A stretch of 64,000 bases of DNA, from NCBI GenBank assembly GCA_026418695.1, contig JAOAAU010000147.1:20484-84483 (forward strand). Direction: 5' to 3'. Made by a program: the position numbers and the translations under genes. This stretch comes from Clostridia bacterium. Its GTDB lineage: Bacteria > Bacillota > Clostridia > Acetivibrionales > JAFADI01. The first letter of the stretch is position 1. Every line of letters starts with the position of its first letter. Below are positions 5,053 to 59,697 of this stretch, in pieces. Below the pieces are notes generated by a model, which made no database searches, was not told where the DNA came from, and worked only from the letters and a program-made list of their open reading frames with translations.

Positions 5053-6132
5053 TTATGGTGTCTGTTTCATTTTCCTGATCGCTTCCCACAAACCGTTTAA
5101 GTATGTGATTCCCAAGGCTCTGTCATAGAGACCGTATCCCGGTCTTGCCTTCTCTCCCCAGATCATCCTTCCGTGATCCGGCCGGATATAGCCGGCAAAG
5201 CCTATATCATGATACGCTTTCATGATCTCGAACATATCAAAGGACCCATCAGAGGAAAGATGAGACGACTCGTGGAAAGTCCTGTCGGATGTAAATTTGA
5301 TATTCCGCACGTGACCGAAATGGATCCTTCCCATGCTTCCAAATTGTCTTATGAGCGCAGGAATGTCATTTTCCCGGTTGGCGCCCAGGGATCCGCTGCA
5401 GAGGGTCAAGCCATTATAGGGACTGTCCACCAGCTTGACAAGTCTTTCAAGGTTTTTCCTGGATGTAACAATTCTCGGCAGTCCAAAAAGAGACCATGGC
5501 GGATCATCCGGGTGAATTGCCATTTTTACGTCCGTTTCTTCACAAACCGGGATGATCTGTTCAAGGAAATATTTCAAGTTGTCAAACAGCTTGTCTTCAT
5601 CCACACGCTTATATTTCTCCAGAGTATCCTTTAGTTCCTTAAGCCGGTAAGGTTCCCAACCGGGTAAAGAGAAACCGTTTGAATTGGTGGCCATATCCTC
5701 CACCAGTTTCACAGGATTCAAATCCTTGATGATCCCGTGATCATAGGCCATTGCTTCTGAGCCATCCGCTAGCTTCATTGCCAGATCCGACCTCATCCAG
5801 TCGAAGACAGGCATAAAATTGTAACAGATGACTTTGACCCCAGCTTTGCCCAGACGACGAATGGTCTCTTTGTAATTCTTAATGTAAACTTCCCTGGAGG
5901 ATAATCCAAGCTTGATATCCTCATGAATATTCACACTTTCTATAACTTCAAGCTCCAGGCCGGCCTTCTGCACCTTGCTCTTCAATTCGAGGATTTTCTC
6001 CATGGGCCAGACTTCACCCACAGGGACATCAAACAAAGCCCCGACCACGCCCGTAATACCGGGTATTTGTCGAATCTGCCAAAGCTCAACGCTGTCATCC
6101 TTTTCGCCAAACCAGCGGAATGTCATTTTCAT
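5053..6132 (-). CDS. uxuA: Mannonate dehydratase
   Basis: MKMTFRWFG start; motifs CYNFMP, AIHPDDPP, RPDHGR, GYGLYDRALG; RBS AAAGGAG. Confidence 0.95.
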   Translation of the reverse strand: MKMTFRWFGEKDDSVELWQIRQIPGITGVVGALFDVPVGEVWPMEKILELKSKVQKAGLELEVIESVNIHEDIKLGLSSREVYIKNYKETIRRLGKAGVKVICYNFMPVFDWMRSDLAMKLADGSEAMAYDHGIIKDLNPVKLVEDMATNSNGFSLPGWEPYRLKELKDTLEKYKRVDEDKLFDNLKYFLEQIIPVCEETDVKMAIHPDDPPWSLFGLPRIVTSRKNLERLVKLVDSPYNGLTLCSGSLGANRENDIPALIRQFGSMGRIHFGHVRNIKFTSDRTFHESSHLSSDGSFDMFEIMKAYHDIGFAGYIRPDHGRMIWGEKARPGYGLYDRALGITYLNGLWEAIRKMKQTP

Positions 6133-6276
6133 CAAAACCATCTCCTTTCAGATGTAGATCAAGCACCTTATCAGTAAAGCATATCGCTGGAAATTTCCCC
6201 AACGCATGATTGAAGTATTTTGAATCGAAAACTTATAGATCAACTCTTTTGCGTTGATAATTTTCGGCTACGTTAT

Positions 6277-7887
6277 CTATAAGTATTTTCTTAGCACATT
6301 TCTGACCGCATGCTTTCCCGCAAGCATTTCCTTGAAATAGCCTTCAACCTTTTCTCCCAGTCCAGCTTCATAAAGGTTCAGTCCAAACAGTTTTGGATTG
6401 GAAAGTATGGGATTCAAATCATTGCCCAGGGAATCAGGGTTCCCGAATTCGATCTTCTGAAGGTACCCCTGCAGTTCATCCAGCATGGGATCGGGACTCA
6501 ATTCCATTTTTTCTCCCAGGTCATTCAGGCCAAGCAAATATCTGCACCAACCGGCAATAACCAGCGGGATATATTGAAGGCTTTTAAGGTCAAAGCCTTT
6601 CTTTCTTTGATAAGCCTTGAGAGTCTCTCCGAATCTTACAGGCATTTTTTGAGAAGTATCGGTAGCAATTCTCTGAGGCATATCCGGGATATTCGGGTTA
6701 GGAAGTCTTACCTCCAGCACTTCTCTGATAAAATCCGCAGGGTCAAGGATTCCCGGATGAACCACTACAGGCATTCCTTCTTCATATCCTATTTTCTCAA
6801 CAAGCTTCTTCAGTTCCGGATCTTTCATCTCATCCGCAATCAGCTTGTAGCCAAACAGGCATCCATAGACAGCCAGGGCTGTATGTAAAGGGTTCAAGCA
6901 AGTACAGACCTTCATTTTTTCCACTCTGTCTACGGTTTGCCGGTCCGTAAAATAGACTCCCGCCAATTCTAGGGGTATGCGTCCGTTTGGGAAACTGTCC
7001 TCAACGACAAGGTACTGTGGACCTTCCGCATTCACAAATGGAGCAATATAGGTTTTCTTATCCGTACAGACAATCTCGGTACTATCAAAACCACTGGCGT
7101 TTAATGCATCCTTCACCGTATCGGATGGTCTTGGGGTGATTTTATCGATCATGGTCCATGGGAATGCTACCTTGGCCGGGTCATCGATGTATTCTAAAAA
7201 TCCTGCTTCCATAAAGCCTTGATCTACCCAGCTTTTTGCAATGGTCTGAACGGAATTTTGCAGTATCTCTCCGTTATGAGAGCAGTTATCCATACTCACA
7301 AAGGCTACAGGCAGTTCTCCGCACAAAAAACGCTCATACGCCAATGCAACAATTTTTGAAATCAGGTGTCTTGGTTGTTTCGGGCCGTCCTCCAGATCCT
7401 TCCGCACATCCGCCAGGAAAGCACCGCTTGCATTGTTCAAAGCATAGCCCTTTTCAGTAATTGTAAAGCTTACAATTTGAAGAGATTTCTGTTTAAAAAT
7501 GCTTTTCAGCCGATTCCAGTCATTTTCCCTTGTCACATCACCCGCAAGACTTTCGGCAATACTTGCAATCACTTTTTTATTCAAACTTCCATCCGGATTC
7601 ATGAGCACCAGCAGCGACAAATTATCATAGGGCTTATAAATCCTGTCGATGATCTCAAAATCAAAAGTTTCTACGGCAATGATTCCGGACTCAGTCTTGT
7701 TCAAATCCAGCAGTGCCTGCTGAACAGCAGCGATAAAGCCTCTAAAGATGTTTCCAGCCCCGAAATGCACCCAGGTCGGTTTTTCCCGGGTTTTGGAAAC
7801 CATTTGCTCAAAATTGAATTTGGGAAGCTCAATCCCTGCCTCTTCCCAAACTCCAAATTCTTTAATGGAATACTGATTTAACTTCAT
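6277..7887 (-). CDS. uxuB: Mannitol dehydrogenase family protein, probable fructuronate reductase (D-mannonate oxidoreductase)
   Basis: Motifs WVHFGAGNIFRG, SFTITEKGY, SMDNCSHNG, MIDKITP; directly upstream of uxuA. Confidence 0.85.
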   Translation of the reverse strand: MKLNQYSIKEFGVWEEAGIELPKFNFEQMVSKTREKPTWVHFGAGNIFRGFIAAVQQALLDLNKTESGIIAVETFDFEIIDRIYKPYDNLSLLVLMNPDGSLNKKVIASIAESLAGDVTRENDWNRLKSIFKQKSLQIVSFTITEKGYALNNASGAFLADVRKDLEDGPKQPRHLISKIVALAYERFLCGELPVAFVSMDNCSHNGEILQNSVQTIAKSWVDQGFMEAGFLEYIDDPAKVAFPWTMIDKITPRPSDTVKDALNASGFDSTEIVCTDKKTYIAPFVNAEGPQYLVVEDSFPNGRIPLELAGVYFTDRQTVDRVEKMKVCTCLNPLHTALAVYGCLFGYKLIADEMKDPELKKLVEKIGYEEGMPVVVHPGILDPADFIREVLEVRLPNPNIPDMPQRIATDTSQKMPVRFGETLKAYQRKKGFDLKSLQYIPLVIAGWCRYLLGLNDLGEKMELSPDPMLDELQGYLQKIEFGNPDSLGNDLNPILSNPKLFGLNLYEAGLGEKVEGYFKEMLAGKHAVRNVLRKYL

Positions 7888-8183
7888 GATGAAACCACCT
7901 TTCATTCAACAACGATGCACCTGCAGTCGGCATTTGGCTTTTGCACAGATGATCTTGAAAATTCAAAAAACCATTCGTGATTCAGGAGAAACGGATATAT
8001 CCTCCATCATAAACGATCACGGATAACCCTAAAAGGACGTAAAATTGATTAAATGGTATGTTTTTTTACATTGTAAGATTTTCAGGGTGTGGTGATGATT
8101 CAGGCTCCGATTTCCCCGTTTGTCTCAGCGACATTGGCCTTATCGTCTCCGCTTCATGATTTATAAAAAATAAACCATTCTGT

Positions 8184-8257
8184 AGATGATCTTATGCTTG
8201 AAACGTTCTATTTTCAATAGACTATATAAAGTTCATTTGTAAAAACTAAATATAATT
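8184..8257 (-). promoter_or_regulatory. Promoter of uxuBA, TTGAAA-17-TAAGAT, paralogous to the aguA promoter
   Basis: Aligns colinearly with 4092-4167. Confidence 0.65.
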
Positions 8258-8311
8258 CTTGAAACCTGCAAATAAATGAATCATGAAGCCAGGTTGATCA
8301 GTACTGTAATA

Positions 8312-8356
8312 AAAAGAGTATCCTGGGTTAAAGATTTCTAACCTGGATACTCTTTT
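8312..8356 (-). terminator. Rho-independent terminator of the exporter operon
   Basis: AAAAGAGTATCC...GGATACTCTTTT inverted repeat with flanking A/T tracts. Confidence 0.8.
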
Positions 8357-8412
8357 GCAATTAGATTTTATTATCAGTCAAGTCGTTATTCGCGGCATCG
8401 TCATGGATATCT

Positions 8413-9225
8413 CTAACTGCTGGCACTGGTATAATTTCTAACAGCAAAATTCCAAAACACTCGGACCAGCGTTAAGAAAACCACAGGTGCGATCACCATC
8501 CACACAGCATAAACATGATTGAGCTTATCCACTAAAAACATCGATGGCAGATTCGTTATAAAGAATACCGGAATAATAAACACCCCTATTCTCTGCATCC
8601 ATTTGTTGTAGATGGTCATAGGCATATTGTTGAAATCCCAGCACCTGTCGGCAATTTCCGTAATGGCACCGGATTTGACAGTCCAGAAGGATAAAATCTG
8701 CGGAATAAGAAAAACTGCATATACAATGCAGGTTGAACTGAGCAAGGTAAGCAAATATCCAGCAGCATTCATAAAGCAGATTGAAATTTGAAGCCTTTGA
8801 CAGGCCAACACCACCATCGTAATGCCCGCAATCAGGTTTGGAACCGGGAGAATGAAATTGACATGGCGCATGGTTGCGATAAATTGAAGTGAAAGAGGTT
8901 TTGTAATGTAGATATCCAAAGTTCCATTCCGGATATGTTCCGGCAGTTGATAGAAATTGTCCATAAACAACCCGGTATATATTGCAGTCATGATAATATA
9001 TGTACCGATAAAGAGCATGATCTCATCCGGAGAAACCCCATTGATGTCAATTCCCGTCTGATAAATGGCAATAACATAAAGGATTTTTGAAAACAGGTAA
9101 ACCAGTTCCATGGTAAGAGCAGCAAAAAGGTTGGCCCTATATTCCATATAGCCGATTAAGCTGTTCTTCATAAACAATACGTAAATCTTCATATGCTTGT
9201 TCACTGCCTGATAAAGCCTAAACAT
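8413..9225 (-). CDS. ABC-2 family exporter permease (DUF990-type)
   Basis: Multi-TM protein with MEYRAN and IRNGTLDIYITKP motifs; RBS GGAGG before ATG 9225. Confidence 0.85.
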   Translation of the reverse strand: MFRLYQAVNKHMKIYVLFMKNSLIGYMEYRANLFAALTMELVYLFSKILYVIAIYQTGIDINGVSPDEIMLFIGTYIIMTAIYTGLFMDNFYQLPEHIRNGTLDIYITKPLSLQFIATMRHVNFILPVPNLIAGITMVVLACQRLQISICFMNAAGYLLTLLSSTCIVYAVFLIPQILSFWTVKSGAITEIADRCWDFNNMPMTIYNKWMQRIGVFIIPVFFITNLPSMFLVDKLNHVYAVWMVIAPVVFLTLVRVFWNFAVRNYTSASS

Positions 9226-9229
9226 CCTG

Positions 9230-10039
9230 CTAACCTCCAACAGCCACATATTTCTTCATCCCTGACCTCCAGCAAGCGTTAGAAACAAAGAGCATGATCA
9301 CAATCCATAGGATTTGGTTGATCGCCCCATATAAGATCTCATCAGGATAAAACCGGCCATTGATGATATTTGCCGGGAAGAACACCAAATATTTGAACGG
9401 TAGCAGACTCAATACTTTCAATATACCTTCACCAAAGATATCCAAAGGAAATATTCCGCCGCTCAGCATTAGAACCCCCTGCCCAGCTGCAATAAACACT
9501 CCCCATACTTCCGTCATCACAAATGCAAGTGAACTGATACAGTAATAAATGAGGAAATTAAGAACCATCGCCAGAACAACAAAAGGAAGGAAGATCAGCA
9601 CTCTTTTGAGTTGCAAATCAAATCCAAGATAGATCTTGCAAAGGACTAATGCGAACAGTGAAATGATCATCAGAATCCCCAGCTGCAATACCTTTCTTCC
9701 CAAAAAACAGCATATTCGGTAGTAAAAGTAGCCGATGGGCTGAACGATAAATTTATTGAGGCCTCCGTTCTTGATATCCTCGGCAATCTCCCATTCAAAC
9801 CCTGTGGATGTCATCTTTGCAACAAGGCCAGCCATAATGGAATATGAAATCATCTGCGGCAGTGTATATCCATAAACCACAGGGTTTTGTGTGCTTGCAA
9901 AAACCGCGGTCCACAGGAAGCACTGAATAAGAATGATAAAGCCGCCGCTAAGAATGCTCAGGAAAAAGTCCGCCCGATATTCCATTGCACTCTGCAGTCC
10001 CATTTGAAAAGCTCTGAAATACTTTTTGGGGATGCTCAT
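9230..10039 (-). CDS. ABC-2 family exporter permease (DUF990-type)
   Basis: Multi-TM protein with MEYRADF and IKNGGLNKFIVQP motifs; overlaps the ATPase stop. Confidence 0.85.
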   Translation of the reverse strand: MSIPKKYFRAFQMGLQSAMEYRADFFLSILSGGFIILIQCFLWTAVFASTQNPVVYGYTLPQMISYSIMAGLVAKMTSTGFEWEIAEDIKNGGLNKFIVQPIGYFYYRICCFLGRKVLQLGILMIISLFALVLCKIYLGFDLQLKRVLIFLPFVVLAMVLNFLIYYCISSLAFVMTEVWGVFIAAGQGVLMLSGGIFPLDIFGEGILKVLSLLPFKYLVFFPANIINGRFYPDEILYGAINQILWIVIMLFVSNACWRSGMKKYVAVGG

Positions 10040-11022
10040 CCTTCTGACCCCCTTTTTTGATACAGCAATGAAATGCCTTCTTCAATGGGGATGTCTTCAA
10101 TATTAAAATCCTGCACCGGAATCCTTTCGAGAATAATTCTGGAATGCTCCTTAAGCTTCGTTTTATCAACTTCCAATGTAGCACTTAAACCGGTGTACTC
10201 TTTTATCTCACCGAATTCCTTGAGGAGTTTCTCCTCAACCCACTCCGTCAACTGCAGACGGATGATTTTCTTTTTGGTGAAGACCTCGTTTACTTTTGAC
10301 AACTCTCCGTCATAAACCACCTGGCCTTGATTTATAATCACCGTTCTCCTGCACATGTCTTCAATATCGTTCATATAATGGCTGGTTAACAGAATGGTGG
10401 TCTTCGTTTTTTGGTTATAGTACTTTAGAAACTCTCTGATCTTTTTCTGTGAAATGATATCTAGACCTATGGTTGGCTCGTCCAGGAACATTACTTTCGG
10501 TTTGTGAATCAAAGCCGCAATAAGTTCCATCTTCATTCTTTCCCCGAGAGACAGTCTCCTGACCTGAACCTTTAATAAATCCTTAACATCCAGCAATTCA
10601 GATAGCTCACCCAGGGTATGGTTAAACTCATAATCGTTGATTTCATAGATATATTTATTCAAATGTAAAGATTCATTGGCGGGCAAGTCCCACCACAACT
10701 GACTTTTTTGGCCCATTACAATGGAAAAGTTCATTTTGAAGTCCTTCTTCCTCTCCCATGGAACATACCCTAATACCGTAGCAATGCCGCTTGTGGGAAA
10801 AAGGATTCCGGACAGCATTTTCAGCGTAGTGGTTTTCCCTGCCCCATTCGGTCCCAAAAATCCCACAATCTCTCCCTCGTCAATATCAAAAGAGACACCG
10901 CTTACTGCCTCCTTAACCAGCTTTTCTCTGTGAAACAGGTTTTTTAGTGAGCTTTTGAACCCTACATCTTTTTTATAATACGAAAAACTTTTGGATAGCT
11001 GATCCACTTTTATGACTTTCAT
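10036..11022 (-). CDS. ABC exporter ATP-binding protein
   Basis: Walker A GPNGAGKTT, signature LSLGERM, Walker B FLDEPT. Confidence 0.95.
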   Translation of the reverse strand: MKVIKVDQLSKSFSYYKKDVGFKSSLKNLFHREKLVKEAVSGVSFDIDEGEIVGFLGPNGAGKTTTLKMLSGILFPTSGIATVLGYVPWERKKDFKMNFSIVMGQKSQLWWDLPANESLHLNKYIYEINDYEFNHTLGELSELLDVKDLLKVQVRRLSLGERMKMELIAALIHKPKVMFLDEPTIGLDIISQKKIREFLKYYNQKTKTTILLTSHYMNDIEDMCRRTVIINQGQVVYDGELSKVNEVFTKKKIIRLQLTEWVEEKLLKEFGEIKEYTGLSATLEVDKTKLKEHSRIILERIPVQDFNIEDIPIEEGISLLYQKRGSEG

Positions 11023-40986: not shown

Positions 40987-41051
40987 TAGGGGACAGTTCT
41001 GCACAAATGTACTTTTATCCGAAAGTAGCATTTGTGCAGAACTGTCCCCTA
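40987..41051. repeat. GGGGACAG-tagged REP/MITE-like element, copy 2
   Basis: 23-bp arms TAGGGGACAGTTCTGCACAAATG...CATTTGTGCAGAACTGTCCCCTA with a 19-bp partly paired spacer; 21 bp per arm identical to copy 1. Confidence 0.9.
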
Positions 41052-42404
41052 TAACGCAACTTTAAAACAGATGCCTTCCGGATCGCATTCAACCCATATC
41101 TCGCCCCCATGGAGTTCAACAATACTCTTTGCGATTGAAAGTCCAATTCCGGTCCCTCCTGTTTCTGAATTTCTTGCTTCATCCGTCCTGTAAAACCTTT
41201 CAAACACCATATCCTGCTCTTCCTGACTCAGAGTTCTTCCCTTGTTATAAATGCTCACGATTGTACGATCTCTATCACAGAAGATGCTTACATCTACATT
41301 TCCAGGCTTTTCACTGTACTTAATCGCATTGTTTAGAATATTTTCAAACACTCTTACCAGTTTTTCCGCGTCCACTTGAACTAAAATCTCCTGATCAGGA
41401 GCGCCATAAGCTATGGAAGTATCATTCAAAGATGCGACCGGCATCAACCCTTCCACGACCTGGCGCACAAGCTCATTCATCGACACCTGTGCTTTTTGAA
41501 GGCTCACATCACAGTTAGTCAGGGCAGTATATTCAAACAGATCCTGGATCATCAGCCCCAGTCTTTGCGCTTTTTCATCAATAATACGAATATAATCCTT
41601 AATTTCATCTTCTCCTGTATATTTTTCTTTTAACAATTGAGTATATCCCATAATGGAAGTCAGCGGTGTTCTGAGATCATGCGACATATTCACGATCAAC
41701 TCGGTTTTCATTTTTTCTGCCTGAGCCTCTTTTTGTTTTCTGGTATTCAATTCTCCTGTCATCAGGTTGATATTCTCTGCAAGCAGTGTCAGCTCATCTT
41801 TCCCTTTGATTTTAACCTTGTAGCTTAAATTCCCTTTGGAGATCTCTACAAGAGAGTTTGCCAAAACCTTAATATAATTCACCCTACTGTAAGTCAGTAA
41901 AAAGAAAGTAATGATAAATACAATAATTCCTATGAACCCTAGTCGGTTTACATCTTCCTTAATGATTGTTCCCGAAAATACAACCTGGTTGCCGTCCGGA
42001 AGCGATTCGACCTTACTGTATCGGATTCTATTCCCTTGATATTCGTAATTATCCTGACCCCTTTTAATCAAATCAAGATCGAGTTTGGTTAAGGGGTTTT
42101 GATAAGGCTTTAGAAATACTATCCCGTTTTTGTCTGCTATAAATGTTTCAATCTGGGCATTGTTCCTTGTAAAATTATCATTGATGATTTTTTGAAGCTT
42201 TTCCTGATTGGGATAATTCGCCGTGATTTCTTCCACAATCGGCCGGCACGCTCTTTTAAAGCCTTCAATTTCAGGGGAATAATCCGTTCTGTTGTTCCGG
42301 ATAATTCCGTTGATTGTCATGAAGGCGATGAGTCCAGCCAATAGGGAGATTAAAAATGCAGCAATAAATTTCGCCCTGATCCCAAAAACAAATTTACTTT
42401 TCAA
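41049..42404 (-). CDS. Sensor histidine kinase (HAMP-HisKA-HATPase)
   Basis: NMSHDLRTPLTS, ENILNNAIKY, GGTGIGL. Confidence 0.92.
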   Translation of the reverse strand: MKSKFVFGIRAKFIAAFLISLLAGLIAFMTINGIIRNNRTDYSPEIEGFKRACRPIVEEITANYPNQEKLQKIINDNFTRNNAQIETFIADKNGIVFLKPYQNPLTKLDLDLIKRGQDNYEYQGNRIRYSKVESLPDGNQVVFSGTIIKEDVNRLGFIGIIVFIITFFLLTYSRVNYIKVLANSLVEISKGNLSYKVKIKGKDELTLLAENINLMTGELNTRKQKEAQAEKMKTELIVNMSHDLRTPLTSIMGYTQLLKEKYTGEDEIKDYIRIIDEKAQRLGLMIQDLFEYTALTNCDVSLQKAQVSMNELVRQVVEGLMPVASLNDTSIAYGAPDQEILVQVDAEKLVRVFENILNNAIKYSEKPGNVDVSIFCDRDRTIVSIYNKGRTLSQEEQDMVFERFYRTDEARNSETGGTGIGLSIAKSIVELHGGEIWVECDPEGICFKVAL

Positions 42405-43083
42405 TTTTATACCCCACTCCCCATATGGTTTTGATATATCTGGGGTTCTTCAAGGTATCTCCAAGTTTTTCTCTAAGGTTCTTAATGTGTGTCATGATGG
42501 TAGAATCCGATTCGAAAAACTCTTCGTTCCAAACGCTTTCATAAATCTTTCTGCTGCTGAAAACAATTCCTCTATTCTTTGCCAAAAGCCCTAATATTTC
42601 AAACTCTTTATGGGTTAACGGGATTTCATTTCCATCCAAGGTTACCTGATGGGTCTGGGTATTGATAGTCAAACCGTTAATGACAATCTCCGAGTTTACG
42701 GAAACCACATTATTTTTAAGATACCTCTTCAGTAATGCTTTTACCCTTACAATCACTTCCAAGGGATTAAAAGGCTTGGCTACATAATCATCGGCTCCAG
42801 TCATAATGCCCTGAATTCGATCTGTAGACTCTCCTTTTGCTGAAAGCATCAGAATAGGGACATCCCAAGTCTCTCGTATTTTTGCACACACCTTAATCCC
42901 ATCCATTCCCGGAAGCATGATATCCAGGATCACCAACTGAATCGGGTGCTGCTTCAATATATCCAAAGCTTCCATTCCATCTTTGGCCTTAAGTACCTCA
43001 TAGCCCTCATTTTTAAGATAAATCTCAATCAGGTCCCGGATGTCCTTCTCATCATCTACGACCAATACGCTAATTTTCTCCAT
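42394..43083 (-). CDS. OmpR family response regulator
   Basis: VDDE, ILDIMLP, GADDYVAKPF, IWGVGYK. Confidence 0.93.
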   Translation of the reverse strand: MEKISVLVVDDEKDIRDLIEIYLKNEGYEVLKAKDGMEALDILKQHPIQLVILDIMLPGMDGIKVCAKIRETWDVPILMLSAKGESTDRIQGIMTGADDYVAKPFNPLEVIVRVKALLKRYLKNNVVSVNSEIVINGLTINTQTHQVTLDGNEIPLTHKEFEILGLLAKNRGIVFSSRKIYESVWNEEFFESDSTIMTHIKNLREKLGDTLKNPRYIKTIWGVGYKIEK

Positions 43084-46767: not shown

Positions 46768-48579
46768 ATGCCGCTGGAATATTTTTCATGGGTCATCTTT
46801 TATATGGTTGTCTTTTTTCTATCTTTTTCCTTGCTGGTCTATTTAGCTGTAAAGGCAAAAAAAAGCCCCCTGCTCTATAGCTTTTTATTCATGCACTTCA
46901 TTACTCTCCTTTGGATACTGCGTGCAACAATCCTCTTTGTGATCATCAGTTATATTAAGGATGAAAATCAATTGACATCCGCATTTGAGTTGCTGAACTG
47001 GAAATTTGGAACGGCAATTGGCGGCTTAGCAGGTCTATCCTGGCTTATATTCAGCTTGAATTATGCTGATTGGAAGCATGCCGGGAATAAACTCGCCATC
47101 GTGCTGTTATCGGCTCCCACTGTTTTTTTTATTCTAACAGCGCTTACCAACGACGTTCACCGCCTGTTCATGTATAAGTTTGTACCTGGAATCTTCTTTT
47201 GGTTTCATGCATTTATCGGTTATTTGTACAGCATTACGGGATTTATTATATTGATACGGTATTCCATCAGAAAGATGGGCTATGAAAGGACTCGCACCAT
47301 TTTGTTGATGGCAGCATATTTTCTGGCGTTTACCTCCAGCCTTATCAATGAACTCCTGGTAGAAGTACTTCATTCCAAACCGATTTTAGGATACGCCGAC
47401 TCCTCTCCCATTGCCTTTACAGTCGCGAACGCATTGATTGCGCTCCTTATATACAAATATAGATTCCTAAATATCAAGACCATTGCGTTAAACAAAATTG
47501 TGAATAATCTTAAACAATCTGTCGTTATTGTAGACAGCTTCAACAAAATCATTAGTCTCAATCGATCTTTTTCTGAAGCGTTTCCGGATGGAATACAGTC
47601 AAAAGAAGATCAAAGGGTTCTTCATCTCAATGAACATTTAAAAGAACGTATTGACCCCAATGAAGAAGGTCAAAAAATACTTGAGGCAATCAATTCAAAC
47701 CAGTGTATAAACTTTCAAGGTGTATTAAAATTAGCGAAGCCTCATAGAAAATACTATGATGTCGTCATCTATCCAATTCTGGATAATGAGAGAGCCCTGG
47801 GAAGAATAATCTCCTTTGATGATATCACCAGAGTAACAGAATTTATGGAAGAATTAGAAGAAAAGAATGATGCCTTATCTTTGCTGAATGATGAGCTAAT
47901 CGATAAGAACAGACAGCTTCGTGATTATGCAGCTGCTGCGGAGGAACTGGCTGTGATGAGGGAAAGAAGCCGATTTTCCAGAGATGTGCATGATACCTTG
48001 GGGCATACAATGACTGTATTAATCACTCAGCTTCAAGTTGTGGATATACTAAGCGACACAGAGCCTGACAAAGCTAAGTTGAAAATTAAGGAAATCATGG
48101 AGATCGCTAAGAATGGGTTAAACGAGTTACGTAAGTCTATTTCCGGACTAATGCCCGGCAAATCGCAGAATATCAATCTCGAGGATGCTCTGATAAAGCT
48201 TGTTGCTGATTTTGAAGCATCCGGGATGAAAATTGATTTATCCTTGAATGGAGACAGCAACTGCTTAACCTCTGAGTATTTCGAGGTATTATTCCGTCTT
48301 TGCCAGGAAGCATTAACCAATGCTCTTCGGCATGGAAAAGCAAAACATGTGGACATTGTGTTTAATTTTTTGGATGAAAAATGCAGGGTCTTTATTAAAG
48401 ACGATGGTCGCGGCTGCAAGGAGGTCCATAAAGGGTTTGGGATAAAAGGTATGGAAGAAAGGGTTTCCAGCTTGGGCGGAAACATTCAATACGGATCGGA
48501 TGGAGAAAACGGGTTCAATATCTTTGTCGAGTTACCTACAACAGGAAGCAAGGAATTACTGTCCAGGACGGGAGGATAA
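46768..48579 (+). CDS. 7TM sensor histidine kinase (HisKA_7TM-like, PAS-like, HisKA_3)
   Basis: About 7 N-terminal TM; ERSRFSRDVHDTLGH, QEALTNALRHG, DDGRG. Confidence 0.9.
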   Translation: MPLEYFSWVIFYMVVFFLSFSLLVYLAVKAKKSPLLYSFLFMHFITLLWILRATILFVIISYIKDENQLTSAFELLNWKFGTAIGGLAGLSWLIFSLNYADWKHAGNKLAIVLLSAPTVFFILTALTNDVHRLFMYKFVPGIFFWFHAFIGYLYSITGFIILIRYSIRKMGYERTRTILLMAAYFLAFTSSLINELLVEVLHSKPILGYADSSPIAFTVANALIALLIYKYRFLNIKTIALNKIVNNLKQSVVIVDSFNKIISLNRSFSEAFPDGIQSKEDQRVLHLNEHLKERIDPNEEGQKILEAINSNQCINFQGVLKLAKPHRKYYDVVIYPILDNERALGRIISFDDITRVTEFMEELEEKNDALSLLNDELIDKNRQLRDYAAAAEELAVMRERSRFSRDVHDTLGHTMTVLITQLQVVDILSDTEPDKAKLKIKEIMEIAKNGLNELRKSISGLMPGKSQNINLEDALIKLVADFEASGMKIDLSLNGDSNCLTSEYFEVLFRLCQEALTNALRHGKAKHVDIVFNFLDEKCRVFIKDDGRGCKEVHKGFGIKGMEERVSSLGGNIQYGSDGENGFNIFVELPTTGSKELLSRTGG

Positions 48580-48580
48580 G

Positions 48581-49213
48581 ATGTCTATGATAAAAGTCAT
48601 AATTGCAGATGACCAACCTGTGATCAGGGATGGTCTGAAATTCATTATCGAACAGAGTAAGGAAATCGAAGTTCTAGGGTGTGCCGGACATGGACTGGAA
48701 GCTCTGGAGCTTTGTGAAAAAGCACACCCCGATATTGTCTTGATGGATATTGTCATGCCTATTTGTGATGGGGTTGAAGGAACAAGGCTCATCAAAGAAA
48801 AGTTTGAAAATATAAAAGTCATGATCCTGACCACCTTCAATGATGAGGACAAGGTTGAGCAAGCCCTGAAAAATGGTGCGGATGGCTATATATTGAAAGC
48901 TATCGAATCTGAGGAACTCATTCTCACTATTAAGACCATTGCAAAAGGACTCCAGGTAATCCATAAAAACTCCTACAACCTGGTTTTGAAAAAACTGCAT
49001 TCCGAGCCTGAGCCTATGGATTTCGGCTTGACTGATAGAGAGTCCGAAGTTGTCAAACTCATTGTATTCGGAAAGAGCAATAAAGAAATTGCTTCTCAAT
49101 TGTACTTAACAGAAGGCAGTGTTAGAAATCTTATTTCATCCATACTTTTCAAAACAAGTCTTAAGGATCGCACACAGTTGGCGGTTTTCGCCGTTAAAAA
49201 CAATATCATATAA
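48581..49213 (+). CDS. NarL/LuxR family response regulator
   Basis: IADDQ, LMDIVMP, LTTF, LTDRESEV...GKSNKEIA; RBS GGAGG before ATG 48581. Confidence 0.93.
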   Translation: MSMIKVIIADDQPVIRDGLKFIIEQSKEIEVLGCAGHGLEALELCEKAHPDIVLMDIVMPICDGVEGTRLIKEKFENIKVMILTTFNDEDKVEQALKNGADGYILKAIESEELILTIKTIAKGLQVIHKNSYNLVLKKLHSEPEPMDFGLTDRESEVVKLIVFGKSNKEIASQLYLTEGSVRNLISSILFKTSLKDRTQLAVFAVKNNII

Positions 49214-50950: not shown

Positions 50951-51040
50951 TGAGAAATTTTGAAAGCAAAAGAGCCTCAAATTTCTGAAATCACTGCAAC
51001 AAACCTCGCGTAATAGGATCATGGTGCTCACAAAAACAAT

Positions 51041-51095
51041 AAAAATAAGGCTGAGATATGAAATTCATTCGAACTCGTTTCTCAGCTTTATTTTT
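51041..51095. terminator. Bidirectional terminator
   Basis: AAAAATAAGGCTGAGA...TCTCAGCTTTATTTTT between convergent genes. Confidence 0.75.
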
Positions 51096-51137
51096 ACTTA
51101 ACCTTTTATTTTTAGGGTTGCTTCTCCAGAATTACTT

Positions 51138-52649
51138 TTACACGATCTTATCATACGTCTGTTTGAATATCTCACCATCACAAATATAATAATCTTCCAG
51201 GCTGTTGATCAAAAGGTAATCCCCTCTCTTTCCAAGAAAATCACCCCATACCGTTCTTACCTTCACCTTTTCATAGAGCTTTACAGCATCCACCATGGAT
51301 TCTTCGACTGTCATGCAAATTTTAAATTCATGAATGTTATCCTTTGTGATTCTAAGCAGCATTGAATCCGATTGGATACTGACCCCGTACTCGTCCAAAT
51401 ATCCGTCTGAGAGGCATTTGGTATTTTTGTGATCTACAACTTGATACTTTTTCTCGAAGGTTTCAGAAGATATCGGCCAAATATCATTTTTCACCCCGAT
51501 GATCACTTTATCTTTTACCGATGCTGTTGCGGTTCCTTCCAGAGTCTTAACTGCAACATCCTCCTTAAAGTAATCCCTGATATCCAAGAAGCGGAGACAA
51601 ATCTTCTTTTTCTTTGCCCTAAATAATTTGTCCCTGCTAAAAATATCATAAGGATTGTCCTTCCCCGTTTGAAGCAGCCGAACCTCCCGGCAGTAATCGA
51701 TGATTTTCGTCCGGATCAGGATTCCAAGGGATACTCGCGGATGAACCTGCTCCAAGCGGTTTTTGACAATATATCCTCCGGCTTTGTTTTCATGTCCCCC
51801 TCCTGACCCAATTCCATCCGTCAGCTCCCTGACCAATTCCTCTGCAGTGAAATAATCATGATAGCTTCGGATAGACAGCTTACACCCATTGCTTCGTTGG
51901 GAGTAAGCAATCACTATATTGATCCCTTCGATCTCCATCAATAGATCGGAGATATGGCCCAGAAGGTTGTCATCACATTCTTCAATCCCTGAAAAAATAA
52001 TATTTTGATACCGTTCTGTTTTTAAAATACCTGAAGCATAAATCTTCAGATCTTCAAAGGACAAAGAGGAGAGTCGCAAATGATCAATGATATTTTTGTC
52101 ATACAGCGCTGTCAGTTCCTTTTTTGCATCCTCATCAAGGGTCGTCATCCTCCCGTTGAACATATCCGTATCCATAAATATCCCATAATACATCACGGTG
52201 GCCAAAGGCTGATCCAACCTGACTCCGAACTGCTTCAGGTAATTCAGCACCAGCGTGGTACAAGCCCCGATCCTTGGCTGGATATCCTCATAAATGTAAT
52301 CCTGCATGGCCTCTTTGATATGATGGTCAACCACAGCGATATTTTTTGCTACAACTTTATGTACATTTGCAGCTCCATACTGGCAATCCACATTGATTAA
52401 AAGTTCTTCTTCTCCAATCTCGTAGCCTTCGTTGATCAAAGTCATACGAATCCGGTAATCACTGAGGATTTTGCTGATATTGGGTTTAAAGGTATTGCTG
52501 CCATAATAGATAATTTCTGCTTCAGCGCCGAAGCTTTCCACCAGCTTCTTCATTCCCCAGGCGGATGCAATGGCATCCGCATCAGGATAGTTGTGAGGCT
52601 GTATATATACCTTTCGGAATCTTTCACATAAGTTTCTTATTTCGCCCAT
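51138..52649 (-). CDS. DHH/DHHA1 phosphoesterase with two C-terminal PGDYG-like modules
   Basis: HNYPDADA, NVD, VVDHH, GIFMDT and SGGGHENKAGG all intact. C-terminal repeats VKTLEG...DKVIIGV...WP...FEKKY and VRTVWG...GDYLL...YYI...FKQTY. RBS AAGGAG before ATG 52649 (503 aa). Confidence 0.85.
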   Translation of the reverse strand: MGEIRNLCERFRKVYIQPHNYPDADAIASAWGMKKLVESFGAEAEIIYYGSNTFKPNISKILSDYRIRMTLINEGYEIGEEELLINVDCQYGAANVHKVVAKNIAVVDHHIKEAMQDYIYEDIQPRIGACTTLVLNYLKQFGVRLDQPLATVMYYGIFMDTDMFNGRMTTLDEDAKKELTALYDKNIIDHLRLSSLSFEDLKIYASGILKTERYQNIIFSGIEECDDNLLGHISDLLMEIEGINIVIAYSQRSNGCKLSIRSYHDYFTAEELVRELTDGIGSGGGHENKAGGYIVKNRLEQVHPRVSLGILIRTKIIDYCREVRLLQTGKDNPYDIFSRDKLFRAKKKKICLRFLDIRDYFKEDVAVKTLEGTATASVKDKVIIGVKNDIWPISSETFEKKYQVVDHKNTKCLSDGYLDEYGVSIQSDSMLLRITKDNIHEFKICMTVEESMVDAVKLYEKVKVRTVWGDFLGKRGDYLLINSLEDYYICDGEIFKQTYDKIV

Positions 52650-52689
52650 GGTTGGTCTCCTTTGAGTATTGCTCCGGTAAATATTTTTC

Positions 52690-54417
52690 TTACTTAATAA
52701 TATAGGGATCCGATTCGCTTCCTTCACCAGATAACGATAATCCCGCAGGGTTCAGGTATAAGGCCGGCCGGACACCACCTCCCGCCATGGTTGCATAGTC
52801 AGTATATATCTCATCCCCGGCAGGAGCTACTATACACACGTCACTGGGACTGTCCCCCCGGGGTGTGCACAGCCACCACATGTGGTAACCTCCGTATTGG
52901 CCTTTAAGCTCCTTGTACCAATTTGATTTATCACGGTCAATGGCTTCCTTGGTGGGAGATGTTTTCAAATCCCATCCGCGGTCATAAAGATATTCCTCAG
53001 CTTCCTTTACCGACAGCAGGAACACTTTGTCCTGAATATTTTTGTAGAATGCCTGGTCATAATTGACTATGGCTTCTCCAACCGGCTCCTTAATCAATGA
53101 ATAGGAGGCAGAGCCTCCGTCCTTGCTCCCTTTTTCCGGTGAGGGCAAGAGTACCTTATGGCTGACTGGCTTGATCAGGCCTCTTTCCTTTTCAGAGAAG
53201 TTGTGCAGAAAGCCCGGCTCGTTCTCATATCCGTTCATGCCTCTGGCAACAGCAGCAGGTACCGGCGGCTGTGAATGGAAAGATACCCTCCGCTCTGTAC
53301 TGTTCAACCATTCTCTCAGATTGGAGTTTGCCCAGTAATTGCTCCCCTTCATTTTCCGAAGGTCTGTCTCTGAATAGTCGGTATAGACCTTGGACCGCTG
53401 CCGGTGGACATCAAACTCGATTCCTGTACCGGTTTTATTATAAGTTCCGCTCTCCGCAGCATCAAACGACTTCATCGTCAGGATCTTTGCAGCCAACAGC
53501 AAAGGGCTTCCTTTAGAATCTATATGGATGACTCTCCAATCAATCATTGCTCCGTTAAAAGTACCAAAGCGGATATATTCTCCGATTTTCAAGCTAGGTT
53601 TCTCATCCTGTAGGCTGGTTGTGCTTCCCTGCTTTACTTCTTCCCTGGATACCGCTTCCGTGCCCAACTCACTGGATTTGGAGTTATTCATTGGGCTGTT
53701 GTCTCCTGTATCCTGGTCCGAAGTTTCTTTGTCCAGTAATTTTTCTTCTGTCTTTCCATCAGTCCTCTTATTAGAAACGTCCTCCCCTGCAGGTTTCACC
53801 TGATCGTTGGGAGTCAGGCTTTTTTTCCCGCTGGATTCTATACTTCCAGTCGAAACCAGGTTGGCTTTTGCTGACTCCGTGCTCCGGTCATACCACTGGA
53901 AAACCCCGAAAGCGGTCATGGAAAGGGCAATTCCAGCCGCAAGGAACATGATATTCTTTATAATTGGGGATTTGGCCTTGGAAGCCGGAACTTTCCTATT
54001 ATTCTCCGTCTGATGTTGGGGAATCAGCTTACCCAGGGTATCCACCAGACATTCGATATGAGCCTCCATATCCGGAGTCAGTGCATCCAGCCAATGGGTG
54101 GAATACAAAAAATACTCCATGGACTTTGTAGGTACGACATCCTCAATTCGAAAGGGAACAATGATTACATTTTTATTGACCGCCCTTTCGACTTCACGGA
54201 GAACCTGCTGGGAACTGTTGGCTGCCGATGAAAAAATCAGAACCATAATCCGGCTTTGCCCGATCGCTTCGACAATGGCTTCTCCCCATTCTCTTCCCGG
54301 GATCACATCCCTTGGAGCAATCCAGCACCTGATTTTATTATTTTCCAGCGCTGAGCAAACAGCATCGGCAATATGCTTGTCTTTTGACGAATATGAAATA
54401 AATATGTCGTGTGCCAC
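52690..54417 (-). CDS. TIR domain - TM - low-complexity linker - DUF6273-like ectodomain protein
   Basis: HDIFISYSSKD...CWIAPRDV..G...VLREVERA (catalytic Glu); TM IMFLAAGIALSMTAFGVF; FGTFNG...WRVI...SNLREWLN...DKVFLLS...WWLCTP...GVRPAL. GTG start at 54417 with RBS GGGGGT. Confidence 0.85.
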   Translation of the reverse strand: MAHDIFISYSSKDKHIADAVCSALENNKIRCWIAPRDVIPGREWGEAIVEAIGQSRIMVLIFSSAANSSQQVLREVERAVNKNVIIVPFRIEDVVPTKSMEYFLYSTHWLDALTPDMEAHIECLVDTLGKLIPQHQTENNRKVPASKAKSPIIKNIMFLAAGIALSMTAFGVFQWYDRSTESAKANLVSTGSIESSGKKSLTPNDQVKPAGEDVSNKRTDGKTEEKLLDKETSDQDTGDNSPMNNSKSSELGTEAVSREEVKQGSTTSLQDEKPSLKIGEYIRFGTFNGAMIDWRVIHIDSKGSPLLLAAKILTMKSFDAAESGTYNKTGTGIEFDVHRQRSKVYTDYSETDLRKMKGSNYWANSNLREWLNSTERRVSFHSQPPVPAAVARGMNGYENEPGFLHNFSEKERGLIKPVSHKVLLPSPEKGSKDGGSASYSLIKEPVGEAIVNYDQAFYKNIQDKVFLLSVKEAEEYLYDRGWDLKTSPTKEAIDRDKSNWYKELKGQYGGYHMWWLCTPRGDSPSDVCIVAPAGDEIYTDYATMAGGGVRPALYLNPAGLSLSGEGSESDPYIIK

Positions 54418-54627
54418 TTTCAATACCCCCAAATGATGTAACAGACAGGCTTTATCCGTTTGTCATTTATTGCTTATCTTTGATAAATATGATAATTCTT
54501 TTTCTATCAAAAAATGTTTCTCATAGATACTAATTATACCAAAATATAACGAAAATGGTATTGATTAATTGAAAAATTTGTAATTACTTGTTGATTGTAG
54601 GTCTATAATTTCGCCAATCTGCACAAT

Positions 54628-54655
54628 AAAAAGCACAACAAACCAGTTGTGCTTT
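54628..54655 (-). terminator. Rho-independent terminator
   Basis: AAAGCACAAC...GTTGTGCTTT; separates the acyltransferase from the TIR operon. Confidence 0.7.
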
Positions 54656-54720
54656 CGAGGGTCTTTATTTATATTGGAAGATTGCCATCCTTTAAACATG
54701 TTCTATAAGCTTTGTAAGTA

Positions 54721-57018: not shown

Positions 57019-59697
57019 TTAAATCAGATTCAGTTCTCTTGCTTTTGCCAATGCCCCTGTTCTGCTGTGTACATCCAATTTTGTATAGATGTTCAACAGA
57101 TGCGTTTTAACCGTATTAATAGAAAGAAATAGCTTTTTAGAAATATCCGCATTCGTAGCTCCCTGTTCAATATACTGCAGAATTTCAATTTCCCTTGTAC
57201 TTAATAATTCCTCCGTCAAAGTCGTTTTATATTTCAAGTCTGCCTTAAAACCGTTGAGCAGGGTTTGAACATATTCAACTTGACCTACTTCCCATTCCAC
57301 ACCTTTATGTTTCTTAAGCTTTTTAATTTTTTCTTCCATCCAGATTCCTTCATCCAGGAAAACCCTCAACATCTTTGAGTGCCATGAAAGCTTAATTGCC
57401 TTATAGAGCTCATTCAACGTGATGTCCAAATCTCCAGTCAGATCATAGATCATTGAGCTCAAGATAAATATCTCCACTTCAAGGCCATAAAGCTTGTATT
57501 TTTTAGCTGTTTGATGAAGAATATCCAATGCTTCTCTGGCCTTTATAAAATCACGCTTGCAAATATATAGCCGGACCAGTATTAATCCAATATTGTGATA
57601 AATATTTAGGAATCCGTTCCCCATCAAGGGAACAATCTCCTCAAGCCATTTGGAAACCGGTTCTGTTACTCCTTTTCGGATGAATGTTTCCGCTCTGAGA
57701 ATCTCCATATTCATCCTTGTATCAAATAACCGGTTCTCTCTGACTCCTACTTCAAGCCTTTTAAGCGTGCTTGTATATTCCTTCTCCAATCCCATGGATA
57801 CATAAATTCTTGCCTGCATCAAATAATTTTCACAAACCGTCCAGCCATCCCCCACAGACTGCCCCAGTTCCAAACCCTTTCGAACCATCTCAAGTGCTTT
57901 TTCAAGCTCATTCCATTGGTGATAAACCTCTGCCAGGCCCGCATATATCAAGCCTGTTGCAGAAAATGAGCTTCCGTAATTCTTGGTAAGTCTCGAGATC
58001 AGCTGCAAGGCCTCTTGCTCTGCAAAAATATATTGTCCTCGCCACTTTCTTGATGTCATTAAAGCCTTTCCGGCTGTGACGGTGATATAATCATCACCAG
58101 TATCAGTACTGATGGAACAGCATTTTTCAAAACACCTTACTGCTTCATCCAGTTCCCCTTTTAAAAGGCAAGCACTTGCCAAATTAAAAGTAATCAGCTG
58201 CGCCAGAAAATCTTTAGGTTCCAAATACAGCAAAGCTAGTTTGCATTCATCAATGATCCGGTCAAGTTCATACGTTCCCATGAGATTTGTTGAGGTTATG
58301 GCTATAATCTCAGCCTCTATTCGATGTACTATCTGACTATGGCCGTTTCCCTTAGCAAGCTTCTTTCTAATCAAAGCGATATAAGAAGAAACTTCATCCA
58401 TTTTTCCCTCTGAACAATAAGCCCATGCACTATTCAAAATCAATCTTGAATTGTTTAAAACAACATTTTCGGGAAGCATTTGATTCCATCGGTGCAGCAG
58501 TTTGGCTTCTCCTTTGCAAAGGATCTCCCCGCTTACCTTGTCAATAAGTTGAACAGCTTTTTCAAACTTTTTCGCCTTGATATAGTTGACAACTGCCTTA
58601 CTCACTTGCTGCCTGCATTCATACCATTGGGCAGCCTTGTCATATAGCTGGTATTCCATCCCTTCATATTCTGTCTTCAACCTTGATACTAAAAAATTTC
58701 TGAATAAGTTATGTAAACGAAACCAGGTCTTCTCACTATCCAATCCCATTAGGAAAAGATTCATAGATTCTATCTTTTCAATCATTCCCCTGCTATTTTT
58801 AGTATTCATCAAATCATCACAAAGTTCGGCAGAAAACTGCTCAAGAACAGAAGAAAAAAGCAGAAAGCGCTTCACTTCCTCATCCAATCTGCAAAACACT
58901 TCGTCTGCCAGGTATTCAAACACAAAGCGGTGATTGCTGAACTGTTTCTCATCCAAAGCCGTCCCCTGTGAATTTTGAATGGACAATGCAGCTATTTGAA
59001 GCCCGGCAGCCCATCCTTCCGCTTCAGTCTTCAAATAGGATAGCTTTTCTTTAGGGAGATCAGTTCCCATTACTTTCGTTAAAAACTCTTGAGATTCTTC
59101 ACTCGTAAAGTTTAAATCAGTTTGATTAATTTCCAAAACACTATCGGATGCTCTCAACCGTGCGATACCCAAATCAGGAACGCTTCTGCTTGAAATCACC
59201 ATATGCATGTTTGGTGGCATATTTTTAAGTAAGAACCTCATTCCTTCCATAATTGCAGGATCATTCACCGCATGAAAGTCGTCAAGAATTATAATCAACT
59301 CAGTGTCCTGATTCGATACATCATTGATCAGATGTGAAATCCATCTTTTACATAAAGGATCTGACTTTGGGTAAAAGGAAGTCATCGTTTCAATAACTTT
59401 TTTTGCTTCATCGTTGATTTTATAAAACGACATCCCTACATAACTCCAAAAGAGTTCCGGGTTGTCATCATCTTCATCCAGGGATACCCAAGCCGTCATA
59501 AGGCCCTTTTTTTGTATCACATTCAGCCAGGATGCAAGCAAGGTCGTTTTGCCGAAACCCGCAGGAGCAGTGATCAGAACAAGACGGTAGTCAAGAACCC
59601 CATTTAGTTTTTCTTGCAAACGGGGACGCTTAACCAGCTTGGATCGTAAAGTAGGATAATTCATTTTTGTTTTAATCAATTGTGTTTCTTGAACCAT
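57019..59697 (-). CDS. MalT-like LuxR family regulator (STAND ATPase-TPR-HTH)
   Basis: APAGFGKTT, WVSLD, ILDDFH, EGWAAGL, LSTREIEIL...SINTVKTHL. Confidence 0.93.
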   Translation of the reverse strand: MVQETQLIKTKMNYPTLRSKLVKRPRLQEKLNGVLDYRLVLITAPAGFGKTTLLASWLNVIQKKGLMTAWVSLDEDDDNPELFWSYVGMSFYKINDEAKKVIETMTSFYPKSDPLCKRWISHLINDVSNQDTELIIILDDFHAVNDPAIMEGMRFLLKNMPPNMHMVISSRSVPDLGIARLRASDSVLEINQTDLNFTSEESQEFLTKVMGTDLPKEKLSYLKTEAEGWAAGLQIAALSIQNSQGTALDEKQFSNHRFVFEYLADEVFCRLDEEVKRFLLFSSVLEQFSAELCDDLMNTKNSRGMIEKIESMNLFLMGLDSEKTWFRLHNLFRNFLVSRLKTEYEGMEYQLYDKAAQWYECRQQVSKAVVNYIKAKKFEKAVQLIDKVSGEILCKGEAKLLHRWNQMLPENVVLNNSRLILNSAWAYCSEGKMDEVSSYIALIRKKLAKGNGHSQIVHRIEAEIIAITSTNLMGTYELDRIIDECKLALLYLEPKDFLAQLITFNLASACLLKGELDEAVRCFEKCCSISTDTGDDYITVTAGKALMTSRKWRGQYIFAEQEALQLISRLTKNYGSSFSATGLIYAGLAEVYHQWNELEKALEMVRKGLELGQSVGDGWTVCENYLMQARIYVSMGLEKEYTSTLKRLEVGVRENRLFDTRMNMEILRAETFIRKGVTEPVSKWLEEIVPLMGNGFLNIYHNIGLILVRLYICKRDFIKAREALDILHQTAKKYKLYGLEVEIFILSSMIYDLTGDLDITLNELYKAIKLSWHSKMLRVFLDEGIWMEEKIKKLKKHKGVEWEVGQVEYVQTLLNGFKADLKYKTTLTEELLSTREIEILQYIEQGATNADISKKLFLSINTVKTHLLNIYTKLDVHSRTGALAKARELNLI

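Follow-up and report, generated by a model that had tools for sequence, protein, structure and literature searches.

A TIR membrane protein encoded beside a DHH/DHHA1 phosphodiesterase with a tandem PGDYG-like domain: an apparent member of a widespread two-part signalling module

A 64,000-nucleotide stretch of DNA from a Clostridia bacterium (contig JAOAAU010000147.1, forward-strand positions 20,484 to 84,483), hereafter called the window, carries two neighbouring genes at window positions 51138 to 54417. Gene 1 encodes a receptor-like membrane protein that carries a TIR domain, and gene 2 encodes a DHH/DHHA1 phosphoesterase that ends in a tandem PGDYG-like C-terminal domain (CTD). Both open reading frames (ORFs) are read from the minus strand, as are all features described within them, and 40 bp separate the gene 1 stop codon from the gene 2 start. 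The source assembly comprises 4.2 Mb in 152 contigs and is 83% complete.

Two adjacent genes for a TIR membrane protein and a DHH/DHHA1 enzyme

Gene 1 occupies positions 52690 to 54417 (575 amino acids (aa); coordinates include the stop codon at 52690-52692), and its likeliest start is the GTG at 54417, which is preceded by GGGGG. An initial annotation, made from the sequence letters, had read its product as a TIR domain with an intact glutamate, followed by a transmembrane segment, a linker and a DUF6273 domain. Pfam searches, hydropathy and alignment all agree with this order, and the linker proves to be rich in Ser, Thr, Glu and Lys. The cytoplasmic TIR domain (aa 5-113; 54079-54405) matches Pfam TIR_2 with an E value of 1.7e-21 and 77.4 bits against a cut-off of 28. 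Its Glu75 (codon at 54193-54195), which lies within the motif SSQQVLREVE, is unchanged across an alignment of 43 relatives, and it aligns with the glutamate of the S.WC..E motif in all partner TIR domains shown and with the corresponding glutamate of flax L6. We take this position to be the catalytic residue of NAD-cleaving TIR domains.

A Kyte-Doolittle hydropathy scan predicts a single transmembrane helix at aa 152-170 (53908-53964), which would place the DUF6273 domain (aa 354-556; 52750-53358; E = 3.5e-18, 66.5 bits against a cut-off of 23.5) outside the cytoplasm. The same domain matches a PHROG family of Hoc-like head-decoration proteins at 4.7e-16. One report (PMC10743442) describes DUF6273 as C-type-lectin-like and as a hypermutation target within phage receptor-binding proteins, and another (PMC10907252) treats combinations of TIR domains with lectin-fold sensors as putative antigen sensors. 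The gene 1 ectodomain would accordingly be a candidate binding domain.

The TIR domain of gene 1 belongs to a large subfamily, as evident by 4807 relatives at E ≤ 1e-10 among 5024 candidates scored. Most of the 120 relatives listed share 60-80% identity with it over the TIR domain, and these listed sequences come from Clostridia, Dehalococcoidia, Phycisphaerae and one record labelled Methanobrevibacter. The nearest solved TIR structures are weak matches, at 3e-4 or worse. The C-terminal domains found in the subfamily include DUF6273, Sel1, FGE-sulfatase, leucine-rich repeats (LRRs), WD40, OmpA, DUF4190 and Kelch, among others. Two genomes, G136 and G190, encode LRR-bearing members on the minus strand (L084:4268-6202 and L085:4547-6223), which present the domain set of a Toll-like receptor in reversed order; neither genome yielded a CTD match in the search of class genomes described below.

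Gene 2 occupies positions 51138 to 52649 (503 aa; coordinates include the stop codon at 51138-51140) and starts at the ATG at 52649. Its catalytic core consists of DHH (aa 13-157) and DHHA1 (aa 216-301) domains, which together span 51747-52613 and are identified by Pfam (2.8e-13 and 50.7 bits for DHH; 2.9e-8 and 34.5 bits for DHHA1, both above their cut-offs), by invariant residues and by structural matches. About 45 full-length homologues, each of roughly 500 aa, were used to judge residue conservation. Residues H19, D23, D25, D88, D108-H109-H110, D160 and G283-G285 are invariant in the 45, and H286 is kept in at least 90% of them, so that the metal-binding and GGGH-region residues bear out the initial view of gene 2 as an intact DHH/DHHA1 enzyme. 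The gene 2 profile is closest to TM1595 (1e-18), GdpP, Rv2837c, NrnA and family II pyrophosphatases. A Foldseek search with the full-length model (pLDDT 89.9) matched GdpP, TM1595, DhhP, Rv2837c and NrnA at 6e-23 to 1e-17 over ~340 columns, which cover the core only. The NCBIfam equivalogs for NrnA, GdpP, family II pyrophosphatase and RecJ all fell below their cut-offs (best scores 45.5 against 283 bits and 36 against 350 bits), and by this sequence measure gene 2 is a subfamily separate from the NrnA, GdpP and pyrophosphatase equivalogs. The genome that supplied the window carries two further DHH paralogues elsewhere.

The CTD (aa 330-503; 51141-51662) corresponds to the two extra C-terminal modules noticed in the initial annotation. 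Its AF2 model (174 aa, pLDDT 94.7) has two similar beta-barrel halves, and two PHROG families of unknown function each match it in two stretches that together cover both halves. The Pfam PGDYG family (PF14083) scores 18.3 bits on gene 2 (E = 0.003), which is under its cut-off of 27. Past the CTD, a C-terminal extension is present in longer relatives from Synergistaceae, Desulfovibrionaceae and a single record labelled Betaproteobacteria, and in five of seven tested this extension is a further PGDYG copy (69.5-85.5 bits, E = 3e-19 to 4e-24). In the Atlas, the closest clusters consist of PGDYG proteins 140-172 aa long, many of which come from phages. In a viral structure library, five uncharacterised proteins match the CTD with E ≤ 0.001, and local matches are found to phage 'PGDYG proteins', while a tblastn search of 50,697 phage records gave three weak matches with no informative annotation. 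A Foldseek search of the PDB returned no match with E ≤ 0.001, and the top Z reached by VIA-align over 48,161 chains was 4.4, for SH3- or Tudor-like barrels. The modules had at first been called sponge-like, and this label is not supported, since these searches show no fold likeness of the CTD to solved structures and a resemblance to uncharacterised phage proteins only; the comparison with solved sponge structures gave missing or weak matches, which leave a relationship possible.

The arrangement originally read from the letters, a co-oriented pair with a 40 bp gap and terminators on both sides, agrees with the ORF calls and with hairpin folding. On the minus strand, an intrinsic terminator of the upstream acyltransferase gene lies at 54628-54655 (-14.9 kcal/mol, z -3.3, with a U run after it) and is the 5′ boundary of the operon. 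A second terminator hairpin lies at 51041-51095 (-22.5 kcal/mol, z -7.4, with a U run; no strand assigned), where gene 2 and the esterase gene converge. The 40-nucleotide intergenic spacer (52650-52689, minus strand) carries the gene 2 ribosome-binding site AAAGGAG at 52657-52663. It contains no terminator and folds at -2 kcal/mol with a z score of -0.24, and it is therefore regarded as unstructured. An extended -10 promoter element had also been proposed upstream of gene 1. The candidate sequence, TGGTATAAT, is indeed present at 54533-54541 on the minus strand by direct reading; it is missing from the output of a consensus promoter scan for want of a matching -35 element, and the candidate stands as a sequence match only.

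Several observations concern the surroundings of the operon. A MalT-like regulator (AAA_16, TPR_MalT and a LuxR-type helix-turn-helix) is encoded two genes upstream, at 57019-59697 on the minus strand, and on the opposite side are two two-component systems, at 41049-43083 and 46768-49213. A diversity-generating retroelement was sought by way of a template copy of the gene 1 3′ end in the bacterium's own genome, and this candidate was rejected when the sole match was the gene itself. Only one sequencing run (X1, share 0.92) covers most of the interval 51000-54700; it is labelled hot springs metagenome and may be the source sample. No RNA run is listed among those that contain the interval.

Recurrence of TIR genes beside DHH-CTD genes

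A profile scan of genome contigs returned 587 relatives, and the best 80 loci were examined together with 6-kb flanks. ORFs were called with a simple script, TIR domains were identified with a hidden Markov model iterated from the window TIR, and Pfam bore out more than 20 of these TIR calls. Five loci were left out, three because no full-length DHH ORF was called (L019, L020 and L041) and two because the proteins are short and lack the CTD (L059 and L065). This exclusion is conservative, because L020 and L041 do hold TIR ORFs. Among the 75 external full-length DHH-CTD loci that remain from the best 80 of 587, a TIR gene lies within the flanks at 37, no ORF separates it from the DHH-CTD gene at 34, and the two genes are adjacent and co-oriented at 32.

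The TIR partners differ in what follows the TIR domain. Proteins of 800-1100 aa, in which TIR and helix precede WD40 or an unannotated region, occur at 33 loci. The window's own arrangement of TIR, helix and DUF6273 is found at four (L024, L055, L076 and L078), and short TIR-plus-helix proteins at two (L056 and L070). Single loci carry TIR-zinc ribbon-helix-Sel1 (L005), TIR-helix-trypsin (L032) and TIR-TPR (L014) proteins. A membrane helix follows the TIR domain at the same relative position in 40 of the 44 TIR ORFs that adjoin DHH-CTD genes, and the catalytic glutamate is retained in every partner TIR aligned. A quick tree of the DHH-CTD proteins scatters the TIR-adjacent rows over every major clade, several phyla and differing TIR architectures, and its well-supported branches demand at least 12 changes of the 'none' state.

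Some of these loci show further features. At L004, from a Halanaerobiales metagenome-assembled genome (MAG), a 38-aa stretch that is 79% identical to the N-terminus of the window TIR lies just upstream of the DHH-CTD gene (L004:5757-5870), and the match suggests a decayed partner gene. The Lachnospiraceae loci (L006, L012, L016, L068, L071 and similar ones) share an order of IMP dehydrogenase, GGDEF-EAL, IMP cyclohydrolase, AICARFT and DHH-CTD genes. They continue with a TIR protein, which is present only in some, and then with a glutaminyl-tRNA synthetase-type gene, DUF2225 and a GntR-aminotransferase. Downstream of the DHH-CTD gene at L076, positions 8557-10055 contain masked or ambiguous bases that place X in several ORFs.

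As a second sample, 400 genomes of the class were searched for the CTD and for TIR_2. Full-length CTD matches occur in 23 of them, as 27 copies, and TIR_2 is found in 22 of these 23 genomes versus 129 of the 400 overall. By coordinate comparison, 16 of the 23 genomes have at most ~4 kb between a TIR frame and the DHH-CTD gene; 12 of these pairs are convergent, three are adjacent and co-oriented, and one is co-oriented with a gap of ~1.8 kb. Given 53 TIR matches in ~64 Mb, chance alone would bring a TIR frame this close to ~0.2 of the 27 copies. We give no p-value for this sample because related genomes are not independent. Genomes with three to five TIR genes and one DHH-CTD gene exist in the sample, and the genome of the window has one TIR_2 gene and one CTD-bearing gene, mutually adjacent. 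Only two further genomes of the same family could be compared, and the gene is absent from both. Contigs of equal size (16084, 8559, 32009 and 129291) appear in both the DHH and the TIR lists; this is a proxy only, and as such it fits co-location in the closest relatives. TIR partners are thus recurrent in a neighbourhood survey of the kind the initial annotation had in mind (37 of 75 loci, 16 of 23 class genomes), and the adjacency, present at 34 of the 75 loci, is not unique to this genome.

The CTD in other protein contexts

The CTD is not confined to DHH/DHHA1 enzymes. A profile search of 1.84 billion representative sequences found 1005 CTD proteins at E ≤ 1e-3, and 30 of the 150 listed were chosen for their unusual lengths and annotated with Pfam. 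All nine of the 750-850-aa proteins picked are REC-class III cyclase proteins that end in the CTD. Also found were DHHA1-CTD proteins of ~320-345 aa, a DHH-DHHA1-CTD-GGDEF fusion (protein P0262, plus a 701-aa member in a Ruminococcus MAG), and a seven-transmembrane protein with the CTD that is the sole member of its cluster. A TIR_2-DHH-DHHA1-CTD protein provides a 'Rosetta-stone' fusion of the two partners. Its 90% cluster has 14 members, eight of which are 674-699 aa long and lie each on a separate contig, and the 699-aa forms have a complete TIR_2 domain.

The cyclase proteins are informative with regard to gene context. A metagenome scan with the cyclase-CTD alignment recovered five full-length loci, two of which (L093 and L095) are 99% identical in DNA, leaving four distinct loci. 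A gene for a TIR-zinc-ribbon protein of 325-343 aa, which has no membrane helix and keeps the catalytic glutamate, lies directly upstream in all five, having been detected at L092 by tblastn only, and a GAF-GGDEF gene precedes it. The cyclase-linked CTD proteins have no DHH domain and retain a DHHA1 remnant without the GGGH and SVRS motifs, and therefore hydrolysis is not possible in these proteins. The TIR link consequently persists without a phosphodiesterase, which makes the CTD the constant element next to TIR. These observations point to the CTD as a TIR-linked module whose attached enzyme varies among phosphodiesterase, cyclase and GGDEF. We favour the view that a constant CTD with a varied enzyme is the pattern of a receiver or regulatory domain, and not that of a substrate-binding appendage.

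In full, the gut metagenome loci L092-L096 (~3200-8600) carry (TIM-barrel)-GAF-GGDEF, TIR-zinc ribbon, and a REC-class III cyclase with degenerate DHHA1 and tandem PGDYG. ORF calling yields separate ORFs for the cyclase and for the CTD part, whereas the 807-aa database proteins are fused. At L092, a PIN7-domain gene follows the cyclase/CTD part.

Relation to known systems and a proposed mechanism

The pair had been described from the outset as standing outside the Thoeris, CBASS and Pycsar architectures, and PADLOC agrees: gene 2 has no matches, and gene 1 has weak partial TIR matches only, with 2.4e-4 as the best among the ThsB models. No ThsA-type effector of Thoeris (SIR2-SLOG, Macro or membrane-spanning) is detected by PADLOC or Pfam in gene 2 or the neighbouring genes. 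Pfam finds no CBASS or Pycsar cyclase in the two-gene operon, and the CAP12/PCTIR TIR model scores 18.4 against a cut-off of 24.7. The likeness to Thoeris lies in a TIR domain with an intact glutamate encoded beside a second protein in which an enzymatic part is joined to an additional non-catalytic domain, and our working model, in which a TIR messenger would act through a sensor domain on an enzyme, is drawn by analogy with that system. However, the window TIR belongs to a membrane receptor that has an ectodomain, an effector of the SIR2, SLOG, Macro or membrane-spanning type is missing, and the surroundings are not a defence island. The logic is Thoeris-like, yet none of receptor topology, effector and candidate sensor domain is the same.

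Other comparisons are similarly partial. The GdpP domain, TM1595, DhhP, Rv2837c (CnpB) and NrnA (Pde2) share the catalytic fold and motifs of gene 2. Relative to the stand-alone DHH/DHHA1 proteins, however, identity is ~20% and gene 2 adds a conserved 170-aa tandem PGDYG-like domain that lies outside those structures. A DHH-DHHA1 nuclease associated with the membrane reportedly degrades the messenger of type III CRISPR systems (Zhao 2020, cited in PMC7824862), and it resembles gene 2 in tying a DHH/DHHA1 enzyme to a nucleotide-messenger system. In contrast, gene 2 is soluble, has no CRISPR context and carries PGDYG modules. The predicted topology of gene 1, with an outer binding domain, one membrane helix and an inner TIR domain, is that of animal Toll-like receptors. 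The likeness to Toll-like receptor and SARM1-type proteins extends to a catalytic glutamate as in NAD-cleaving TIR domains and to the LRR ectodomains of subfamily relatives, but the TIR domain of gene 1 is N-terminal, so that the order is reversed, and no TIR adaptor partner accompanies it. We found no description of a TIR and DHH-PGDYG pair in the openly searchable literature, a search that did not extend to subscription journals and supplements, and the locus looks like a member of a widespread two-part signalling module of this kind.

How might the two parts work together? The reading that we prefer, to which we give a little less than even chances, is that the TIR domain makes an NAD-derived signal, that the CTD senses this signal, and that the CTD thereby gates the phosphodiesterase. 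One part would be a single-pass membrane protein whose sole cytoplasmic domain is a TIR domain that, judged by its intact motif, should be catalytically competent, and whose outer side would offer a variable binding domain, in the window the lectin-like DUF6273. The other would be a DHH/DHHA1 phosphodiesterase in the cytoplasm that belongs to the pApA, c-di-AMP and nanoRNA clade and is equipped with the tandem PGDYG-like CTD. An extracellular ligand would bind and bring TIR domains together, and these would turn NAD+ into a nucleotide signal. The CTD would receive this signal, or possibly the TIR domain itself, and switch the phosphodiesterase, so that a second nucleotide pool would be altered.

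This gating reading rests on the domain architectures, on the intact catalytic motifs, on recurrent adjacency together with fusion, and on the gene link between CTD and TIR. It presumes that the TIR domain is an active enzyme, that its product is a signal of the kind named, that the CTD binds this signal, and that the phosphodiesterase acts on a second nucleotide pool. Ligand-induced clustering and messenger synthesis would be its first events, and the biological role may be sensing of the envelope or of a host on the one hand, or anti-phage defence on the other. The initial annotation had left open whether the DHH protein is a gated effector or an off-switch. The evidence leans towards a gated enzyme and away from a plain off-switch, as evident by the cyclase-CTD loci that adjoin TIR without a phosphodiesterase.

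Several observations weigh against the gating reading. No TIR gene lies in the flanks of 38 of the 75 loci, and since 12 of the 16 pairs in the class sample are convergent, these are not co-transcribed. Genome G133 (98% complete) has two DHH-CTD copies (C39:10199-10699 and C30:22397-22900) and no TIR_2 match. Conversely, G312 and G098, both 99% complete, have gene 1 orthologues (40% identity) and no CTD match, and full-length gene 1 orthologues (47-50% identity) lie away from DHH-CTD genes in G063, G096, G153 and G311. The link between TIR and DHH-CTD is facultative in both directions. In Lachnospiraceae, DHH-CTD keeps synteny with purine-synthesis genes and with glnS. No ligand-binding fold is recognised in the CTD by Foldseek against the PDB or by VIA-align (Z ≤ 4.4). 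A defence island at the window locus was considered and rejected, since the neighbours (two-component systems, an acyl-CoA-type ligase, an esterase, an acyltransferase, a short-chain dehydrogenase and the MalT-like regulator) are ordinary regulatory and metabolic genes. The facultative pattern may reflect a basal role for the DHH enzyme, with several TIR receptors feeding one CTD protein.

The chief rival to gating is an off-switch, in which the TIR protein would be both sensor and output, by depleting NAD+ or through a signal read elsewhere, and the DHH/DHHA1 enzyme would hydrolyse the TIR product and reset the system, with the CTD merely recruiting substrate. It has in its favour that the DHH/DHHA1 catalytic motifs are invariant, that the core is nearest to the degraders of signalling nucleotides GdpP, TM1595, DhhP and Rv2837c, that a DHH-DHHA1 nuclease is reported to degrade a type III CRISPR messenger, and that TIR receptors occur in genomes without DHH-CTD, as expected if the enzyme is accessory. 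However, substrate recruitment leaves unexplained why the CTD sits on cyclases with a dead DHHA1 and no DHH that are still beside TIR, and an intact DHH-CTD persists both at the 38 loci without an adjacent TIR gene and in G133. We therefore consider an off-switch doubtful. A third possibility dispenses with a small messenger altogether, such that the TIR domain would be a scaffold and the CTD would dock on assembled TIR domains. SH3- and Tudor-like barrels, the best matches of the CTD, are often protein-binding, the fusion of TIR with DHH-CTD exists, and the unusual conservation of the TIR domain across several phyla (60-80% identity in most of the 120 relatives listed) fits a conserved interface. 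Complex prediction for DHH-CTD with TIR aa 1-150 returned a score of 0.00 and no verdict. The invariant catalytic glutamate nevertheless points to enzymatic use, and many pairs are convergent or unlinked within one genome, which makes protein-level coupling of this type quite unlikely in our judgment.

The partners might also have no functional link, with DHH-CTD being a housekeeping nanoRNase or pAp phosphatase paralogue beside which TIR genes lie by inherited synteny. The Lachnospiraceae gene order with guaB, purine-synthesis genes and glnS would fit, as would the half of the loci that have no TIR gene and the fact that related genomes are not independent. Yet TIR and DHH-CTD genes are found together repeatedly in distinct clades and phyla; the TIR architectures differ, either gene order and either orientation occurs, and the adjacency is accompanied by the fusion protein and the cyclase-CTD context. 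Moreover, the genome of the window already has its two other DHH paralogues. Such an explanation strikes us as highly improbable. Whatever probability these four readings leave belongs to an explanation not considered here.

What is known of TIR signalling in bacteria comes from defence systems in the cytoplasm. In the present case, the TIR domain is part of a receptor-like membrane protein whose outer domain is exchangeable, and it is tied via the CTD to a phosphodiesterase and elsewhere to cyclases. Should this link be genuine, it would give PGDYG domains a role, would join NAD-derived signals to the classical nucleotide second messengers, and would offer a testable bacterial counterpart of Toll-like receptor topology. 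A bolder proposal, which we put forward as speculation and judge unlikely, is that bacteria possess a true outside-in Toll-like pathway. Ectodomains of the lectin-like, WD40, LRR or Sel1 type would detect an extracellular cue, for example phage particles, glycans or host factors, and the TIR domain would make a messenger. Tandem PGDYG domains would form a new class of messenger receptor that steers enzymes of c-di-AMP, cyclic nucleotide monophosphates or c-di-GMP, and the stand-alone PGDYG proteins of phages would act as sponges or decoys. Because the module is common in gut Lachnospiraceae, it may be relevant to the sensing of phages or of the host by these bacteria.

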